The notes below the pieces were generated by a model. It had not been told where the DNA came from. It worked only from the letters and a program-made list of their open reading frames with translations, and ran no database searches. From the NCBI GenBank assembly GCA_042408195.1, contig JBHOQL010000107.1:31976-95975 (forward strand): a stretch of 64,000 nt of DNA, read 5' to 3'. A program made the position numbers and the translations under genes. Origin of the DNA: Anaerolineae bacterium. Lineage in GTDB: Bacteria; Chloroflexota; Anaerolineae; SpSt-600. Below are positions 15,080 to 24,278 of the stretch, in pieces. How positions within the stretch are numbered: the stretch's first letter is position 1; each line of letters starts with the position of its first letter.

Positions 15080-16438
15080 ATGAGGGAATTCAAGAAAATC
15101 CTGTTTTACATCCGCTATTCTCTGGGCAATTTCGCCAACACAATCGCCTATCAAGTCTTCGGCAACCGCATCCAGTTTTACTACGTGGACATTTTGGGAC
15201 TGAATGCGGCGATCGCTGGAATGATCTGGAGCCTTTACGGTGTCTGGAATGCCCTCAACGACCCACTCATGGGCCAAATTTCTGACCGAACTCGCACTCG
15301 GATGGGCAGACGCGTCCCTTACGTTCTTTTCGGGGCGATCCCGTTAGGTCTTTCGTTCTTCTTCCTTTGGACACCGCCAGGCCACAGCCCCCTCTTGTTA
15401 GCCATTTACTTTTTCCTCATTCTCTTCATCTTTGACGGCCTCTACAGCCTTACTTGGATTGCATATACCTCCTTGTTCCCGGAAATCGCAGTTACTGTGC
15501 GGGACCGAGTCAATTTATCGGCTGCACGTGAGGTCCTGGCAGTCATCGCCCTCTTACTTTCTTACATTTTAGCACCTATCCTGGCCGAGACCATGGGATA
15601 CATATGGATGGGAGCCATCATGGGGGCTACCATCGCACTTGGATACTTGATCTCAATTCTGGGCATCCGGGAACGTCCGCTGGCAAAAGAGGAGGACACT
15701 GTAAGCTTGCTCCAAGCCTTGAAAATCGTCCTTTCCAGCCGTCCCTTTCGCTGGTTCCTGGGCGCCAACATGGCCAAAGAATACATCTGGCTGGTTCTGG
15801 CCGCGACACTCCCCTTCTGGCGCAAGTACGCCTTGGGCATCACGGGCAAGACCGAAATCTTCGGGATCATGATGAATCCTGGGGATGTGGAAGCAATCCT
15901 GCTGGGATTGCCCATATTGCTCACTGCGCCCTCCATCCTGCTTTGGCGCCCTATCGTTCCTCGCTTGGGCTATCGCAGGGCCTGGATTCTGGCCAGCTTT
16001 GCCTTTATTCCCGGTCTCCTGCTGATGGCTTTCGCCCACAATTTCTACACAGGCCTGTTGGGGACTATCTTGGCCGCACCAGGGCTGGCAGGCTCCATGA
16101 TCATGCCGTTTCCGGTCCTTTCGGAAATCGTGGACCACGATGCAGCCCAGCACGGCTACCGCCGGGAGGGTATATTCTTCGGAATGAATGCCGGGATCAT
16201 CAAATTGGCTTTCTCCGCTCAAGGGCTCTTGTTCGCGGGAATAATGGCCGCTGCCGGATACGTAGCTGGAAGCGATGTCCAGCCTGCCAGCGCTATTTGG
16301 GGCATTCGCTTCCTCATCGGTATTACACCGGTGATCGCTTGCCTCATTATCGCTTATTGCATGTACAAGTATCCTCTGGGAAGAACCCGCACGGTAAAGG
16401 AGATGCCCTTTCAGGAGATCGCACTGGCCGACGAATAA
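15080..16438 (+). CDS. MFS transporter, glycoside-pentoside-hexuronide (GPH):cation symporter family
   Basis: 12-TM layout and a GPH-family N-terminus (GNFANTIAYQVFGNRIQFYYVDILGL…DRTRTRMGRRVPY). An RBS gggagg lies upstream. Confidence 0.8.
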   Translation: MREFKKILFYIRYSLGNFANTIAYQVFGNRIQFYYVDILGLNAAIAGMIWSLYGVWNALNDPLMGQISDRTRTRMGRRVPYVLFGAIPLGLSFFFLWTPPGHSPLLLAIYFFLILFIFDGLYSLTWIAYTSLFPEIAVTVRDRVNLSAAREVLAVIALLLSYILAPILAETMGYIWMGAIMGATIALGYLISILGIRERPLAKEEDTVSLLQALKIVLSSRPFRWFLGANMAKEYIWLVLAATLPFWRKYALGITGKTEIFGIMMNPGDVEAILLGLPILLTAPSILLWRPIVPRLGYRRAWILASFAFIPGLLLMAFAHNFYTGLLGTILAAPGLAGSMIMPFPVLSEIVDHDAAQHGYRREGIFFGMNAGIIKLAFSAQGLLFAGIMAAAGYVAGSDVQPASAIWGIRFLIGITPVIACLIIAYCMYKYPLGRTRTVKEMPFQEIALADE

Positions 16439-16449
16439 GGAGGAGAACC

Positions 16450-17877
16450 ATGCCCATCCCACAGAAAGGCTTATCCAAGGAGGAAATTCTCACTGCACTG
16501 GAACGCTTCAAGGCCCACGACCTAAACTGGAAAGCAGGGCGAGTGTGGGCATATGTTTATAATCCTGGGGACGAAATCCGCGAAGTGGTTGAGCAAGCTT
16601 ATACAATGTTCCTCACCGAGAACGCCCTGGATCCGACCGTCTTTCCCAGCCTATTGCGGCTGGAGGTAGAGGTTGTCCGGATGCTGGCGGATTTGCTGAG
16701 AGGGGATGAAAATGTTGTAGGAAATGTAACCTCCGGAGGAACGGAAAGCATCCTGTTGGCGGTAAAAGCGGCAAGGGACTGGGCCCGCGCCCAACGGCCT
16801 GAAATCACTATCCCGGAAATGGTGCTTCCGATGACTGCGCATGCTGCTTTCCACAAAGCTGCCCATTATTTTGGAGTTAAGCCTGTGATTGTTCCATTTA
16901 ATCCTGAAACATACCGCGCTGATGTAGAGGCAATGCGAAAGGCCATCACCGAGAACACAATCCTCCTGGTCGCCTCCGCACCTTGCTATTCTCACGGAGT
17001 AGTAGACCCTATAGAAGAAATCGGAGCTCTAGCCCTGGAAAAGGGGTTGCTCTTTCACGTGGACGCTTGCGTAGGAGGCCTCCATCTCTCCTTCATGAGG
17101 AAGATGGGCTATCCGGTGCCCAACTTTGACTTCAGTGTACCAGGCGTCACGTCAATCTCCGTGGACATGCACAAGTACGGGTATGCAGCTAAGGGATGTT
17201 CCATCATCTTGTATCGAAACAAGGAGTTAAGACGGTACCAGATTTTCGCTTGCTCGGAAACCACAGGCTACGCCTTGATTAACCCCACTCTCCTTAGCAG
17301 CCGCACCGGTGCACCAATCGCCGGAGCGTGGGCAATCTTAAACTACCTCGGGGAAGAGGGGTATTGCCGCATTGTCCGAGCCGTACAGGAAGCCACCCAG
17401 AAGCTGATAGAGGGAATCAGTGCTATAGAAGGGTTGCGGATCCTGGGCCAGCCGGATATGTGCATGTTCTCCTTCACCTCCGATACGGTAAACGTCTTTC
17501 TATTAGCGGATGAGATGCGGCGGCGAGGATGGTACCTACAGCCCCAGTTCTCCACCCCCCTCTCTCCGCGCAGCCTACATGTATCCGTGACTTACGGGAC
17601 AATCCCCGCAGTAGATGCACTTCTGGCCGATTTACGGGATGCGGTGGAAGTGATCCAAAAGATGCCCGAGCCAGATCCGCAGCTCGTTCAAGCAATGGTT
17701 ACAGTACTGCTGGAAAACCCTACTCCAGAAGCCATAGCCCATATGTTATCTGCAGCAGGCATTAAGACCACTGAGTTGCCTCGGGATATGGCTCTCATCA
17801 ACGAAATTCTGGATGCACTACCCTCTGAAGTGGTCAATGACCTTTTGATCGGCTACTTTAATGACCTTTACGCATAA
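16450..17877 (+). CDS. pyridoxal-phosphate-dependent decarboxylase/lyase, group II (sphingosine-1-phosphate-lyase / MfnA / glutamate-decarboxylase-like)
   Basis: A PLP-lysine motif (SISVDMHKYGYAAKGCS) and group-II fold pattern are present. The true start is ATG 16450 after RBS aaggaggag; the long listed ORF 15604-17877 is an in-frame read-through artefact across the MFS gene. Confidence 0.8.
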   Translation: MPIPQKGLSKEEILTALERFKAHDLNWKAGRVWAYVYNPGDEIREVVEQAYTMFLTENALDPTVFPSLLRLEVEVVRMLADLLRGDENVVGNVTSGGTESILLAVKAARDWARAQRPEITIPEMVLPMTAHAAFHKAAHYFGVKPVIVPFNPETYRADVEAMRKAITENTILLVASAPCYSHGVVDPIEEIGALALEKGLLFHVDACVGGLHLSFMRKMGYPVPNFDFSVPGVTSISVDMHKYGYAAKGCSIILYRNKELRRYQIFACSETTGYALINPTLLSSRTGAPIAGAWAILNYLGEEGYCRIVRAVQEATQKLIEGISAIEGLRILGQPDMCMFSFTSDTVNVFLLADEMRRRGWYLQPQFSTPLSPRSLHVSVTYGTIPAVDALLADLRDAVEVIQKMPEPDPQLVQAMVTVLLENPTPEAIAHMLSAAGIKTTELPRDMALINEILDALPSEVVNDLLIGYFNDLYA

Positions 17878-17943
17878 CAACTTAATAGGGCCTTGGCTCT
17901 AATGCGCTAACTCAAGGCCTATATGGGCTGGACTGGCCTGGTA

Positions 17944-18828
17944 TCAGAACCCGAACCACCGCAGGACCAAATCGGGTACCCAAAACCCTCCAATCCCCAA
18001 GCCAATTCGCACGAAGGTAGAGGCTACCAATAGCAGCACGCTAAAGGCGATGAGGGCATAGTCTCGCGGCGCGTATCGCAACTCGTGAATCCATGTGCGG
18101 GGGCGCAGGCCGAAACAGCGCAGGTCCATCGCGTTGATGATGTCCTCCGCCCCAACGATCGCGTTGATGGTCACTGGAACGATGAGAGGAGCCATCTTCC
18201 GAATCTGAGCGATTAGCCCCCCTGTCAGTTTTTCAACCTCGTAACCCCGCGCTCGCTGTGCATCCAGCGTAATGCTGAAATCCCGCGCCAACGTAGGCAC
18301 GAACCGGAAAGCCAAGTCCATGGAAAAGGCTACCTTATCGGGCAGCCCCAAATATCGGAAAGTTACCCCGTAGTGATTGGGGTTGAAAGTGTATGCCACG
18401 GGGATAAAGAGGGTGGCGACGGTAAGCATCCGAACCATCTGGCTTACAGCAAAGACCAATTTCTCCACCGTGATGGTAGGGTGGATCTCCCATCCCACCC
18501 TCGGGATGACCCACCGAACCTCCCAGATAACGTGGTAGCTCCCCCGCAGGACCTCCACAGGCCCGCCTCGCCCTGTTAGAACCGCGTTGATTCCGATGAT
18601 AACCACCACCAGAATCAGAACAAAGGTCCATATCCGGCGGGTCTCCCGCCACGTCAGCCGACAAAGGAAATAATATACCAAGGTGAGGCCGAAGAAAAAG
18701 AGCAAAAACCGCAGATCCCAGAACTGGATCACCGAAAAGAGGACAGCCAGCATAAAGATCCACCGCGCTCGCGGGTCCAACTTTTGGATGAAGGTATTGC
18801 GCTCCCGGTAACGCCACGAGACCAGCAT
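17944..18828 (-). CDS. ecfT: ECF transporter transmembrane (T) component, EcfT/CbiQ family
   Basis: EcfT-like polytopic layout with coupling-helix region (…ARDFSITLDAQRARGYEV…). Last gene of the ecfA-A/S/T module. Confidence 0.8.
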   Translation of the reverse strand: MLVSWRYRERNTFIQKLDPRARWIFMLAVLFSVIQFWDLRFLLFFFGLTLVYYFLCRLTWRETRRIWTFVLILVVVIIGINAVLTGRGGPVEVLRGSYHVIWEVRWVIPRVGWEIHPTITVEKLVFAVSQMVRMLTVATLFIPVAYTFNPNHYGVTFRYLGLPDKVAFSMDLAFRFVPTLARDFSITLDAQRARGYEVEKLTGGLIAQIRKMAPLIVPVTINAIVGAEDIINAMDLRCFGLRPRTWIHELRYAPRDYALIAFSVLLLVASTFVRIGLGIGGFWVPDLVLRWFGF

Positions 18829-18889
18829 CCGTCCTCCTGGGTTGGTTTACAGCGGCGGCCTAAAAGGCCGCCGCTGATGGACCCTTAAT

Positions 18890-19438
18890 TTACCGCCCGG
18901 TCCGGGCGGTTATGGCGCTGTAGGCAATCATCAAGATGGGCACCAGGATAACACCATTGACGACGTCCGTCAAGCCTGCGGGCAAAAAGTAGCCAACAAG
19001 GGCTGTCCTGAGGTCAATCCCGGAGACCCATATCTCCGAAAGTGATGCTAAGAGCATTCCCACAATCGCGCCCAAGGCAGAAAAGATATCGGCAATGACT
19101 AAGGACCGAGTGCTGCGGAAATCCCGAATTAGAAGCCCCGCGAATCCCGGGATCAGCCCCATGATGCCGTTGCCCAGGTCCCACCAAAACCAGAAGCCCC
19201 AGCCGGAGAGGGCATCACCAATGATGTTCCCCAAGAAACCGCTGATAAAGCCCACCCATGGCCCAAAGGCAACGCCGAAGAACATGGGGATACAAACGGC
19301 AGGACGAAAGGCTATGTTGCCTGCGGCGGGAAGGGCTAACATGTTTGTGGCAAAGGAGAGGACGCCATAGAGAGCCGCCCCTAGTGCCGCAAGGACTATT
19401 TAGCGAGTCCCAAAGGCATACCACTTTTTCTCTCGCAT
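18890..19438 (-). pseudogene. ECF transporter substrate-specific (S) component interrupted by an in-frame TAA after codon 12 (MREKKWYAFGTR*IVLAALGAALYGVLSFATN MLALPAAGN…)
   Basis: ATG 19438 sits 12 nt after the ecfA-A stop and has an RBS (aaagaggttacc). The frame then hits TAA at 19402-19400 and continues open, in the same frame, through a canonical S-component first TM helix to the listed ORF 19342-18890. The substrate class is not recognisable from the sequence. Confidence 0.55.
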
Positions 19439-19450
19439 GGTAACCTCTTT

Positions 19451-21073
19451 TTATGAAAATTTTGCAACCGCATGGGCCAGGGCTTCCGCCCTCATAAAAC
19501 GGCCCGTCTGCGGCAAATACTCCAGGTTCAATCGCAAAAGGGACGTGGGCACAATCCGGCACCGACGCAGACGGTCTATGTCCGCTAGAACGGCCTCCGG
19601 CGCACCGTCGGCAACGATTTCCCCTTCCGCCATGAGTATAACCCGATTTGCGTAGCAGATAGCCAAGTCCAGGTCATGGGTAACAAACAAAACTGCTGCC
19701 AAGTCCGGCATCCGAAGAATAGAATCCATGAACGCCATGTAATTCCAGTAATCCTGGCCTGCCGTCGGCTCATCCATGATCAGGATTCGGGACCCCATTG
19801 TCAGGATGGCTGCAATGCTCACTCGCTTTTGCTGCCCAAAAGAGAGGGCCAGAGGCGGGTAATCCTCCTGTCCTCTCAGGTTGACAACCTCCACCGCCCG
19901 AGCAATTCCTGCGGCAATTTCCTCCGGCGAAAAGCCTAAGTTCTTCGGTCCAAAGGCCAATTCCTCCCTAACCGTTGGGGCAAAAAGCATGTGGCTTGGG
20001 CTTTGGAAAACATAACCAACGGTATGGGCTAGCTGGGCCACACTCAATTCCCGAGTGTCCCATCCCTCCACCAGCACCCGGCCGCGTCGAGGCTTAAGAA
20101 GACCAATGACGTGCTTGACTAGCGTCGTCTTCCCGGCACCGTTAGGGCCTAGTATGGCGATGATGTCTCCCCGATAAATGGTCAGGTTAACATCGCGGAT
20201 GACCGGTGGACCCTCCTCGTCGTAAGCGAAGGTCACGTTCTCAAAGACCACAAGGGGTTCACGACCGTTAGGCCGGATAGCGGGTTCAAAGGTAGGAGGT
20301 GAGGCCTTGACAGCACGCTGAAAAACCAGAGGTGCGGGCAACTTTACCTCCTGGTAGTCCACCGCTTCCGTCATCCTTTCCGGTGGGCCCTCGTAGATTA
20401 CCCGTCCGTCCCGCATGAATAGGACACGGTCAGGCCGGATGCTCAGAGCGTCCTCCACTCGGTGCTCCACCAGCAAAATACTGATGCCCTCGTCGGCTAA
20501 GTGGCGGAAGAGAGCCAAAGCTTCTTGCGCGCTGACAGGATCCAGGTTCGCCAGCGGCTCGTCCAACAGCAAAATCCGGGGCCGCATTGCCAGAACCCCT
20601 GCCAGAGCCACTTTTTGCTTTTCACCACCAGAAAGGTAGAAAGTCTCCCGGTCCCGAAGGTGAGAGATGCCCAGGTGCGCTAAAACCTCGTCCACCCGCC
20701 TGAGGATTTCCGACCGAGACAACCCCAGGTTTTCCAGGCCAAAAGCCACTTCGTTGAGAACGAAACTCCCCACAATCTGCCGCTCCGGATCCTGCAAAAG
20801 CGTCCCCACCTGTTGGGAGAGTTCAGGCATGCTCATGGAGCGGGTATCCCGACCGTAGAGCAGAATCCGTCCTTGGAGTTCGCCTTTGTATGTGCGAGGG
20901 ATCAGTCCGTTGATACAACGGATGAGAGTGGTCTTCCCACAGCCGCTAGCCCCGGCAACCAGCACGATTTCCCCTGGTTTCAGAGCAAAGGAAACATCTT
21001 TAATGGCAGGCTCCGGTCGGGCTCGATAGCGGAAGCTCAAATTCTCAATTAACAGAGGTAGTTCTCCGGACAA
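19451..21073 (-). CDS. ecfA: ECF transporter ATPase, fused tandem EcfA1-EcfA2 (two ABC nucleotide-binding domains)
   Basis: Two Walker A motifs (GASGCGKTT and GPNGAGKTT) and two ABC signatures (LSGGEKQKVALA / LSFGQQKRVSIA) are present. Confidence 0.9.
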   Translation of the reverse strand: MSGELPLLIENLSFRYRARPEPAIKDVSFALKPGEIVLVAGASGCGKTTLIRCINGLIPRTYKGELQGRILLYGRDTRSMSMPELSQQVGTLLQDPERQIVGSFVLNEVAFGLENLGLSRSEILRRVDEVLAHLGISHLRDRETFYLSGGEKQKVALAGVLAMRPRILLLDEPLANLDPVSAQEALALFRHLADEGISILLVEHRVEDALSIRPDRVLFMRDGRVIYEGPPERMTEAVDYQEVKLPAPLVFQRAVKASPPTFEPAIRPNGREPLVVFENVTFAYDEEGPPVIRDVNLTIYRGDIIAILGPNGAGKTTLVKHVIGLLKPRRGRVLVEGWDTRELSVAQLAHTVGYVFQSPSHMLFAPTVREELAFGPKNLGFSPEEIAAGIARAVEVVNLRGQEDYPPLALSFGQQKRVSIAAILTMGSRILIMDEPTAGQDYWNYMAFMDSILRMPDLAAVLFVTHDLDLAICYANRVILMAEGEIVADGAPEAVLADIDRLRRCRIVPTSLLRLNLEYLPQTGRFMRAEALAHAVAKFS

Positions 21074-21492
21074 AGCTCCCTCCCTATAACGACCTTACAA
21101 AACAGCATTCGTACGAAGTGGGTCTTCAAAATGTTAGCGCTAACTACTGGGCAAAACGAGAACCGCCCCGGTGTTGCCAAAGAGATGCAGACAATGCAGC
21201 TGCGGCCTCGGGGGATCATCCCCCCCCATCAATTGCTAAGTTTTACCATTCACTGGCCTTTTTAGGGCTGAAATCGCCGTCGGCAGTAAAATTATATACC
21301 TATCAGGCAAGAGTAGCAACTTACTAATTGGGGCCAAGGCCTTTCCCTTTCGCTTAATTGTCCGCAAAATCAAACACATCACCTCGAGCCCTAACTAACT
21401 GAGGAGCCGAGGCTGCAAGCTATTTCGGGCCCGCTTGCATATGTAAAGCTCGGGAAAACAGCGTTAAAGTTGCCAAGCAAGAGGGGAAAAGC

Positions 21493-21897
21493 TTATCCCA
21501 TATACCATACCCACTTGGGGCCGCGCATATCCCTTATGATGTCAGTAGTGGAAAGGACACCAATGGGCTCGCTTCCTTTCTCGGAATCAATGGTAACTAT
21601 TACCCTGTGGATTTTATTTTCTAGCATTATCTTGGCCGCATCTTCTACCGGGGTGTCTGGATGCACAGAAATAACGGGCGATTTCATAACGTCTTTGGCT
21701 TTATAACCAGATATGTCCTGGCCGTAAAGAGGGAGGAGGTCCATGTGAGAGATTATGCCCATTATATAGCCTTCGGGGTCGGTAACTACTATAGCATGGA
21801 CATCGGTATCGGCTATGACCCGCACCACTTCCTGAAGGGAGGTTTCCGGACCGCAAGAGATAACACCTTTGTGCATTATGTCCTTAACGACCTTCAC
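21493..21897 (-). CDS. CBS-domain pair protein
   Basis: Two CBS motifs in 134 aa (DIMHKGVISCGPETSLQEV… / …HRVIVTIDSEKGSEPIGVLSTTDII). Confidence 0.7.
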   Translation of the reverse strand: MKVVKDIMHKGVISCGPETSLQEVVRVIADTDVHAIVVTDPEGYIMGIISHMDLLPLYGQDISGYKAKDVMKSPVISVHPDTPVEDAAKIMLENKIHRVIVTIDSEKGSEPIGVLSTTDIIRDMRGPKWVWYMG

Positions 21898-21992
21898 TTT
21901 CCTGCCTCCTTGCCTTAATGTTAAAATAACGGCGAGGCCGTTACCGTGGTGGAACGAACGGCCTCGCCGATCACCTTCACCCGGTAGCCCCT

Positions 21993-24278
21993 TTAGAACA
22001 ACGGCGGCATGCTGAGAGCTGGATGGCCTTTCTCCTCAAGGTAGGCTAAGAGCTCTTCCACTGTGGTGGCAACCCGCTCATCAGCAATCTTGTCCAGAAG
22101 GTCGGGGTCACCTTCTCGCTCGCAGACCTTCTGAAGCTCCTCTTTCATAGTCTCCTTAAGGAAGCTGGACATCCACACAATGCGCTTGAAGCCGCCATCG
22201 GCCCGGATGAATTTCCTGGAGAGGAGGAAATACTTACCAATACCCATCACGCCCGGGGTTTGGAGGCCACCACCAGCCGTTCCTGCCAGGGTTGAGAAGG
22301 TCATTCCAGCTGGGGTCATGGACGGATCCTCGCGGCTGACCACCATAAAGCCGTTGGCTTCAGGGATTATCATCATTATGCACTCAAAGCAGCCGCAGGC
22401 GGTCATCGGGTTCTCCATAATGGAATACATGGCTACCTGGTCGACGGCCCCGCGGGAAGCCTGCTTTACGAACCGGTTAACTCCTTCAAAGTAACCTTTC
22501 CATTCGTCCAAGACCTTGCCTTTGGGAACCGGCTGGTTGGGGCCTGTGGGGTTGATCTGGTGAGAAGCCTTGCAGTCCAACCAGTTGTAGGCACCACACA
22601 GCCCTAAGCGCTCAGGGCTGATGATGCAGACGTGGTTGGGAGCAAAGCTCTGGCAGAGGGTGCAGGAGTAGAATTCCTCCACGCTTTCGTCCGTCATCTC
22701 TTCCAGGCGGCGGTTGCGGAAGTTATAAGCTTCACGTGCTTTCTGGAGCCACTCTTGCAGGAGACTCTTGTCAGTGATTATCTTGACCTGAACCTTGTCC
22801 ACAATAGCGCCAAAATCGGAGTGGAAACGAGCGTGGAGGATCTTACCAAAATGCTCGAGCCTAAAGCCAGCCTGGGAAGCTTTCTTGGAAACTCGGATCC
22901 AGGCTATATCCCTCTGACCTATGTGCTGGATGCCGGAGGCACCGTTAATAAAGTAGTGGATCTGGCGCTCCAAGACGGGCTCAAAGTCCTTCTGCATCTT
23001 GCGCCCGGCGACTTCTACTATGATGCCCATGTCCATAGCTCCGCCTTCCGGCACCTCGTCAAAATCTGGTCCTATGACTTCAATCTTGCCATCCTCCACT
23101 TCCTCCATAGGCTTCATGTAGAGGTACTCGAAGCAACGGGAGTCCTTGCCACCAAACTCCACCCTCATGTCCTGGCGGCGGACTCTCTCCCCCTCAAAAG
23201 CGGAACCGTAAGGAACCGGAATGTCAATGCGGGTTATCTTTACCTTGACTCCGCGCACCTCAATGCACTTTTCTACAAGCCTCTTGACCCTCTCTATATC
23301 GTCTTTGCCCTCAATATCGTCAAATGGCATAGAGATAACGTGTTCATACTGGGTTACGCCGGTGGGGAGGATCTGCGGAATAATGGTATCGGCAATGACT
23401 GGGAAACCATAGTTAATGGCACCGGCGGCGGTTGCGTACTTGAGGTCATCCACTTCACCGAGAGCCAGGACGAAAGCAAAAACCCTGTACTTGTTGTAGA
23501 GAAGGATTTCCTTAGCCTGGCCGGGCTTGAGGCCGCCGAAGCTCAGGGCAGAGCGGGTAGCAAAACCAAGGGCGTAAATAGCCGAGATGGTATCAGTTCC
23601 GAAGGGGACGATATAAGTATCGTAGCCCATCTCCACCCCTTCTTCCATGAGCTGATGGATTATAGAGCGCCCGTTCACATTGCCGGCAAGGAGGACAAGG
23701 ATGTTGCGCTGCTGGAGCTCACGGACAAGTTGGACTGCTACCTCGTTGGATTTGGCACAGCCGACAATGGCCGCAAAGCCCGGCATTCGTCCGTCTACCA
23801 ACTGAATGCCCCACGCTCGCATCTGAGAGTCATCAATGGGGCCATTGAGGCGGGTTCCTTCCTCGCCTTTCATAAAATCAGGGGCGGTGAAGCTGGCAGA
23901 AGGAACGTAATAACCTCCCCAGGTTATCTTTTCGGGCTCAAGGCCGTAGGCGAAGCGGATGCCTTCAATGGCCTCTTCGGCCAGTAGGGTAGCGATTCCG
24001 CAGTCCAAGGCCTCCCCCAGATAAGGAAGCCAGTGCTTCTCTTCGGGAATAGGGTGCAATAGATTCTTGGCTATGTTCAGAACCTGTTCCAGGTCCTTAA
24101 GTTTTGTGACCGGGATGCCGGTAAGGCCGTAAATGACTGGAAGGTAATATGCAGTGTTAGGGAAAGCCACCTTGGCCTCCGGGCCAAGCTCTTGAAGGGC
24201 CTTTTGGAGCATCTTCTCGGCTTCGTTGACAATGTAGTTGGCGCCTCTTATCGCACGGGTGGCAATATATCTGGACAT
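21993..24278 (-). CDS. acsB: acetyl-CoA synthase (CODH/ACS complex, ACS catalytic subunit AcsB)
   Basis: About 760 aa with the characteristic N-terminal region (…FPNTAYYLPVIYGLTG…), matching the ACS alpha-subunit family. Adjacent to cooS/acsA. Confidence 0.85.
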   Translation of the reverse strand: MSRYIATRAIRGANYIVNEAEKMLQKALQELGPEAKVAFPNTAYYLPVIYGLTGIPVTKLKDLEQVLNIAKNLLHPIPEEKHWLPYLGEALDCGIATLLAEEAIEGIRFAYGLEPEKITWGGYYVPSASFTAPDFMKGEEGTRLNGPIDDSQMRAWGIQLVDGRMPGFAAIVGCAKSNEVAVQLVRELQQRNILVLLAGNVNGRSIIHQLMEEGVEMGYDTYIVPFGTDTISAIYALGFATRSALSFGGLKPGQAKEILLYNKYRVFAFVLALGEVDDLKYATAAGAINYGFPVIADTIIPQILPTGVTQYEHVISMPFDDIEGKDDIERVKRLVEKCIEVRGVKVKITRIDIPVPYGSAFEGERVRRQDMRVEFGGKDSRCFEYLYMKPMEEVEDGKIEVIGPDFDEVPEGGAMDMGIIVEVAGRKMQKDFEPVLERQIHYFINGASGIQHIGQRDIAWIRVSKKASQAGFRLEHFGKILHARFHSDFGAIVDKVQVKIITDKSLLQEWLQKAREAYNFRNRRLEEMTDESVEEFYSCTLCQSFAPNHVCIISPERLGLCGAYNWLDCKASHQINPTGPNQPVPKGKVLDEWKGYFEGVNRFVKQASRGAVDQVAMYSIMENPMTACGCFECIMMIIPEANGFMVVSREDPSMTPAGMTFSTLAGTAGGGLQTPGVMGIGKYFLLSRKFIRADGGFKRIVWMSSFLKETMKEELQKVCEREGDPDLLDKIADERVATTVEELLAYLEEKGHPALSMPPLF

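Follow-up and report, generated by a model that had tools for sequence, protein, structure and literature searches.

Does the S-component gene of an Anaerolineae ECF operon, which carries an in-frame TAA at its thirteenth codon, still give rise to a working protein, or has it recently been inactivated? The gene lies in a 64,000-nucleotide stretch of contig JBHOQL010000107.1 (hereafter the window, whose numbering is used throughout unless stated otherwise), from an uncultured Anaerolineae/Thermoflexia-like Chloroflexota bacterium. An initial annotation, made from the letters alone, had described the interruption and offered three possibilities for it: a nonsense mutation of recent date, an error of sequencing or assembly, or translational read-through or reinitiation. 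We evaluated these possibilities by examining the operon, its relatives, a second assembly and the products that could still be made from the interrupted frame.

The interrupted gene and its operon

Translation from the ATG at 19438 ends after 12 codons at an in-frame TAA (19402-19400) and the frame stays open afterwards, as the initial annotation had stated, although the open part comprises 169 codons rather than the approximately 165 first estimated (Table 1). The frame past the stop reads IVLAALGAALYG...ARTGR (also written IVLAALGAALYGVLSFATNM...ARTGR). Ahead of the start codon, the window contains AAGAGG versus GGAGG at the same place in relatives. The read-through translation scored 79 bits against the Pfam family PF07155 (ECF-ribofla_trS; gathering cut-off, 26.7), with residues 11-174 aligning to profile positions 4-171 of 172, indicating that homology runs through the stop. 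An S component of this family is expected to have an uninterrupted reading frame of around 182 aa, and here that frame is broken by the TAA at codon 13.

As a proxy for the window protein, we modelled with AlphaFold a homologue of the same length and 92% identity (P0001). The model (pLDDT 89, pTM 0.86) consists of six helices, the first of them spanning residues 11-34, and the 21 best matches of a Foldseek search of the PDB were all ECF S components (probability 0.93-1.0, TM 0.48-0.67), including ThiT, FolT, RibU, BioY, PanT and unnamed S chains of ECF complexes. Sequence searches of the PDB, either with the single protein or with a 47-sequence profile, gave no matches, and S components were recognised by the fold search alone. 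Residues A18 and A22, which form an AxxxA motif within helix 1, were invariant in 47 sequences; this motif is described as crucial in docking S components onto EcfT (PMC4820897; PMC11109136).

The gene is flanked by ecfAA, 12 nt upstream, and by ecfT, 61 nt downstream. The EcfAA product contains two ABC_tran domains and scored above the cut-offs of both TIGR04520 (402 bits) and TIGR04521 (394 bits). Its gene aligned over 539-540 codons, with no stops, to those of two relatives, L121 and L045 (dN/dS 0.04-0.06), and its apparent TTG start (21071-21073, minus strand) follows a GGAGGG, with both the TTG and the Shine-Dalgarno sequence kept in most close relatives. Likewise, EcfT matched PF02361 (CbiQ; 61.5 bits) and its gene aligned over 294 codons with relatives (dN/dS 0.054-0.059). 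These domain matches and full-length alignments without stops bear out the initial view of intact A-A and T genes. The order ecfAA-S-ecfT also occurs in L121, in L045 and in a Logan contig (L001, SRR24425229), and among related loci that extend far enough, nearly all have a fused ecfAA some 1.7 kb 5' of the S gene. The ecfAA-S-ecfT cluster is, then, a dedicated ECF module.

Table 1. Coordinates of the ECF operon and of the elements around the premature stop in the window.
Feature	Coordinates	Strand	Remarks
ecfAA, fused double ATPase	19451-21073	-	540 aa; TTG start; ends with TAA at 19453-19451; intact
Shine-Dalgarno-like AAGAGG	19444-19449	-	5 nt between motif and S-gene ATG
S-gene start, ATG	19438-19436	-	12 nt past the ecfAA stop
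S-gene codons 1-12 (MREKKWYAFGTR)	19403-19438	-	now a stand-alone mini-ORF; homologous to residues 1-12 of full-length relatives
Premature in-frame TAA	19400-19402	-	in place of conserved Glu13
ATA (Ile14)	19397-19399	-	adjoins the stop on its 3' side; Val in all 135 relatives
Predicted RNA hairpin, UGCC...GGGACU[CGCUAAAU]AGUCCU...GGCA	19385-19418	-	8-nt loop with the UAA and the AU of the AUA
S-gene remainder	18890-19399	-	169 codons plus terminal TAA (18892-18890); most of helix 1 (A18...A22, AxxxA) and helices 2-6
ATG (Met33)	19340-19342	-	first canonical in-frame start past the stop; product of 150 aa, without helix 1
Perfect 11-bp GC-rich hairpin, CAGCGGCGGCC TTTTA GGCCGCCGCTG	18850-18876	-	5-nt loop; in the 61-nt S-T spacer; no U-run after it
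ecfT, transmembrane scaffold (T)	17944-18828	-	294 aa; Shine-Dalgarno GGAGG; intact

In its Pfam score, its six-helix fold (from the P0001 proxy), the AxxxA motif of helix 1 and its linkage to EcfA and EcfT, the gene product thus conforms to PF07155 S components such as RibU, from which it differs in that its ORF is broken at codon 13, the RibU cut-off is not reached and there is no FMN riboswitch. Bacillus subtilis ykoCDE is a dedicated (group I-like) ECF operon with a fused double ATPase. The window operon is similar in having its own fused A-A ATPase together with S and T genes, but its S component belongs to PF07155, not to the YkoE family, and it lacks a TPP riboswitch.

The substrate was not recognisable, in agreement with the initial annotation. 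The protein scored 72.1 bits against the RibU equivalog NF010182 of NCBIfam, whose cut-off is 99, and 31 bits versus a cut-off of 60 for the FolT family, and the fold search with the P0001 model cannot tell the substrate. Neighbouring genes differ between L001, L045 and L121, and no conserved neighbouring gene pointed to a substrate; literature on 'HtsT' contained nothing useful on the substrate.

Nor did regulation provide a clue. An Rfam search of positions 17500-22500 returned no riboswitch at E values up to 1, and no riboswitch was detected at the operon in 17 related loci at the Rfam gathering threshold. An FMN riboswitch or a riboflavin-gene context, which are common but not obligatory for RibU, was found neither at the window operon nor at those 17 loci. 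The two Rfam matches among the 17 loci were a SAM riboswitch (positions 10364-10480 of L015, 90.6 bits), in a Thermoflexia relative, and a tRNA, also in L015; the former, some 5 kb 3' of the S gene, is unrelated to the ECF operon, and the latter is likewise situated about 5 kb from the S gene. We also aligned the 330 nt upstream of ecfAA in 18 relatives. The 419-nt spacer upstream of ecfAA in the window (21074-21492) was not conserved, and in most relatives a gene ends right before ecfAA. This lack of conservation, together with the lack of Rfam matches, leaves no candidate leader RNA, in agreement with the initial annotation, which had identified no riboswitch in this region. A promoter-like TTGCTA-17-TATAAT occurs within it, at 21319-21291 on the minus strand.

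The hairpin in the S-T spacer occurs once in the window and is absent from the corresponding spacers of L121 and L045 (24-33 nt). Locus L002 contains a different hairpin 3' of the S gene, flanked by T and A runs. Directly upstream of the operon there is a gene for a CBS-pair protein (21493-21897, minus strand) and, beyond it, one for the beta subunit of acetyl-CoA synthase/CODH (21993-24278, minus strand; 761 aa; PF19436, PF03598 and PF18537), which suggests Wood-Ljungdahl capacity in this Anaerolineae-like MAG. On the other side, converging on ecfT, a mechanically called ORF of 757 aa (15604-17877, plus strand) is really a 475-aa PLP-dependent decarboxylase (16450-17877), whose frame stays open upstream across the preceding MFS transporter gene.

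Conservation in relatives and age of the lesion

The initial annotation had proposed a comparison with orthologous S genes. A protein search identified 1,136 relatives, and the 120 best were mostly from Anaerolineae/Thermoflexia MAGs; we also gathered DNA of 43 related loci from species-representative genomes and 74 from metagenomes, of which 114 were usable (42 and 72, respectively). The S protein was 181-186 aa long in the 42 genome loci, in the 72 metagenome loci and in almost all of the 120 best protein matches, and none of the 114 usable loci had an in-frame stop in the S gene. All listed relatives read on through the position of the stop with the near-invariant motif FGT[RK]E(V)V[YFN], and when 135 distinct relatives were merged into one alignment, the column of the stop contained E in 133 and Q in the other two. 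On this comparison the premature stop is lineage-specific: it is private to the window lineage, and no relative has a TAA at this codon.

Codons 13-16 are GAG GTA GTT TTT in L121 and GAA GTA GTT TTT in L045 (92% and 91% amino acid identity to the window, respectively), and TAA ATA GTC CTT in the window. The relatives thus give GAA or GAG as the ancestral codon 13. A single G-to-T change, as initially suggested, is sufficient to convert GAA to TAA, but the other proposed ancestor, GAT, would need two changes. No intact allele from the same species was found in the GTDB representative genomes (best match, 90%) or in JGI metagenomes (best, 86%, partial matches). For the window species, the protein collection contained solely a 131-aa call starting at Met52 (P0055), derived from NCBI (a 98.9-kb contig) and from Logan.

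We estimated dN/dS by the Nei-Gojobori method from codon alignments among the window, L121 and L045. The values for the S gene were 0.029 (window versus L121) and 0.024 (window versus L045), as compared with 0.053 for the control pair, L121 versus L045, and with 0.040-0.066 for ecfAA and ecfT in all three pairs. The ratio is therefore not raised in the S gene with respect to ecfAA or ecfT, although dS exceeded 1 in eight of the nine comparisons, including every one with the window, so that synonymous sites are saturated and the ratios show constraint only for nearly all of the history of the S gene. The gene contains no further lesions, and past codon 16 its product has no residue at a conserved column that is private to the window. 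This lack of decay in the rest of the gene suggests a recent origin of the stop on the time scale of the divergence from the closest relatives sampled.

Only three residues of the window protein were never seen in their column among the 135 relatives, and these are the stop at codon 13, Ile14 (an invariant Val elsewhere) and Leu16 (Tyr, Phe or Asn elsewhere), all within 19391-19402 of the minus strand. Two private changes arising independently would, by our estimate, both fall within three codons of the stop about once in 1000 cases. This cluster is most simply read as one multi-nucleotide mutation event; local relaxation of constraint and compensatory change are alternatives. The same segment is predicted to fold into an RNA hairpin (Table 1) with an energy of -13.4 kcal/mol, a marginal result (z = -2.09), with 10 of 200 shuffled sequences folding as well, and the equivalent segments of L121 and L045 did not stand out in the same test. 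We regard the hairpin as a weak lead for the reinitiation reading considered below, not as evidence for it.

Alternative readings of the interrupted frame

If the TAA were an artefact of sequencing, assembly or consensus building, or a minority variant in the MAG consensus, the real gene would be intact and the locus an ordinary ECF operon. The source genome is metagenome-assembled, the window species is present in only two sources of the protein collection, a common sample, or related ones, may underlie both assemblies in which the stop occurs, and either a systematic error common to both or a within-sample polymorphism is formally possible. Against this, the Logan contig L001, which encodes the exact EcfT protein and covers positions 20236-15594, carries the identical ...CGC TAA ATA GTC CTT... 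while differing from the window at four sites in 4,643 bp: two synonymous (19043 and 18030), one intergenic (18882) and one producing Ile402Val in the neighbouring decarboxylase (17653). That a second assembly with four SNPs agrees on the TAA makes an assembler-specific or random base-call error unlikely. Additionally, the lesion is a base substitution and not an indel in a homopolymer run, and the neighbouring codons also carry real, unusual substitutions. A scan of the window for interrupted genes, based on crude codon usage and on stops flanked by coding-like sequence, yielded six candidates. Three of them, with short upstream parts, read like non-coding frames on inspection and were rejected, and the other three, with long ORFs on both sides, were interpreted as adjacent genes that share a frame. 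There was therefore no other convincingly interrupted gene to indicate an error-ridden window, although the scan is insensitive to lesions of this kind, as it failed to flag the stop at 19402. From these sequence comparisons a sequencing or assembly error appears unlikely, and we assign only a very small probability to the stop being an artefact or a minority variant.

Alternatively, the stop might be subject to programmed recoding, through reassignment of TAA, a suppressor tRNA or ribosome hopping. The sole point in favour is that homology continues in the same frame directly past the stop. Conversely, long ORFs in the window end in TAA more often than in any other stop codon (18 of 38, including ecfAA and the S gene itself), which indicates that TAA is not reassigned; the terminal stop of the S gene is TAA in L045 too. 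A recoded stop would be expected to be conserved in orthologues, or TAA not to be used as a terminator, and neither is the case here, the stop being found in no relative. The only tRNA gene in the window is for tRNA-Val, and no suppressor tRNA was detected there. We rejected ribosome hopping and frameshifting because the homology picks up again, in frame, right at the codon after the stop, with no matching take-off and landing codons around the stop (CGC TAA ATA), so that neither event is needed or supported. Programmed recoding is thus scarcely credible at this locus.

A different way for the S gene to have remained functional would be termination at the UAA followed by restart on the adjoining AUA (UAAAUA), or low-level read-through of the UAA, yielding some full-length protein, with the neighbouring private changes being compensatory. 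Restart of translation downstream of nonsense codons is a classical observation in bacteria (lacI, T4 rIIB), and bacterial ribosomes normally read through UAA only very rarely. Between the stop and Met33 we found no in-frame ATG, GTG, TTG, CTG, ATT or ATC, and the ATA at 19399-19397 is the only start-like codon of translation table 11; the initial annotation overlooked this AUA, the sole start-like codon that would keep helix 1. No Shine-Dalgarno-like sequence precedes the ATG of Met33, and a start there (19342) drops helix 1, as anticipated, given that the helix spans residues 11-34 in the P0001 model. On the basis of that model, products starting at Met33 or Met52 should have no docking helix and should be inactive. 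In contrast, a product started at AUA14 would lack 13 N-terminal residues but keep helix 1, and its N-terminal peptide would be fMet-VLAALGAALYGVLSF.

Several features are in line with such a restart. The AUA lies directly 3' of the stop and arose from the Val that is invariant in the 135 relatives; the three never-seen residues are clustered at codons 13, 14 and 16; the UAA and the AU of the AUA lie in the loop of a predicted hairpin that was not predicted in the two nearest relatives; and the downstream sequence has been under strong apparent purifying selection. Other observations weigh against it. Initiation at AUA reaches only around 1-2% of that at AUG in E. coli (bioRxiv 10.1101/063800), there is no good Shine-Dalgarno sequence ahead of the AUA, with the GGGA stretch being located in the hairpin stem, and a single transition, GTA to GTG, would have made a far better start. 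The marginal significance of the hairpin and the saturation of synonymous sites also weigh against it, as dN/dS is silent on the period after the stop arose. A single multi-nucleotide mutation could account for the clustering equally well, the FGTRE motif that is lost hardly varies across the family and the arrangement was found in no relative. Translational coupling relies on an efficient start (AUG, GUG or UUG) at the stop, usually with a Shine-Dalgarno sequence, and here only the AUA adjoins the stop, with the next AUG 57 nt downstream. Compared with known reinitiation systems (lacI, T4 rIIB; stop-start coupling), the window is alike in containing a short ORF, a stop and then an in-frame start-like codon (UAAAUA), and differs in its AUA start, its lack of a Shine-Dalgarno sequence and its lack of conservation.

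Taking both sides together, we consider it improbable that the S gene is still functional by either route. A more specific version would have a broken gene rescued by restart on the AUA made by V14I, with a hairpin partly built by F16L presenting the UAA-AUA in its loop, to give an S component minus 13 residues; this we hold to be more doubtful still. If true, such a rescue would be a natural case in which non-AUG reinitiation evolved to compensate for a nonsense mutation.

Fate of the transporter

Among the three options initially listed, our results favour a recent nonsense mutation, since the stop is private, is present in a second assembly and interrupts a gene that is otherwise undecayed. 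We assign a probability of roughly 0.75 to a genuine, lineage-specific nonsense mutation of Glu13 (GAA/GAG) to TAA in the S component of the ecfAA-S-ecfT operon, producing a young pseudogene or loss-of-function allele. Ribosomes starting at the ATG at 19438 would terminate after 12 residues, TAA being a normal terminator in this genome, and the full-length S component would not be made. Additionally, the resulting 510 or so untranslated nucleotides ahead of ecfT may lower its expression, through lost coupling or polarity. With no S component and possibly less EcfT, the transporter would be null or strongly reduced. Judging from the sequence, the S allele is most likely null or strongly hypomorphic, and the lack of decay in the rest of the gene points to an event that is young next to the divergence from the closest relatives sampled.

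Three observations run counter to a knockout. We saw no relaxed selection downstream of the stop, which fits a very recent knockout but also a gene still expressed in some way; ecfAA and ecfT on either side are intact; and V14I and F/Y16L cluster at the stop, which a simple single-base change does not predict. The gene resembles ordinary nonsense pseudogenes in having a private stop at a conserved codon, intact orthologues and an otherwise undamaged sequence, and differs from them in the two extra never-seen substitutions within three codons and in that no decay is yet visible. Despite these differences, the locus is most likely a young pseudogene or loss-of-function allele and not a recoding device; that is, an event of an already known kind and not a new mechanism. 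The tight cluster of three private changes would be of interest only if expression showed that the gene still works.

Annotation should accordingly treat the locus as a pseudogene or disrupted gene for an S component, for which gene callers now give a 131-aa fragment from Met52 (P0055), and the transporter should not count as functional in metabolic reconstructions of the source MAG. In the wider clade, the relatives define a well-conserved ecfAA-S-ecfT system in Anaerolineae with an uncharacterised S-component family, which is mildly interesting independently of the stop.
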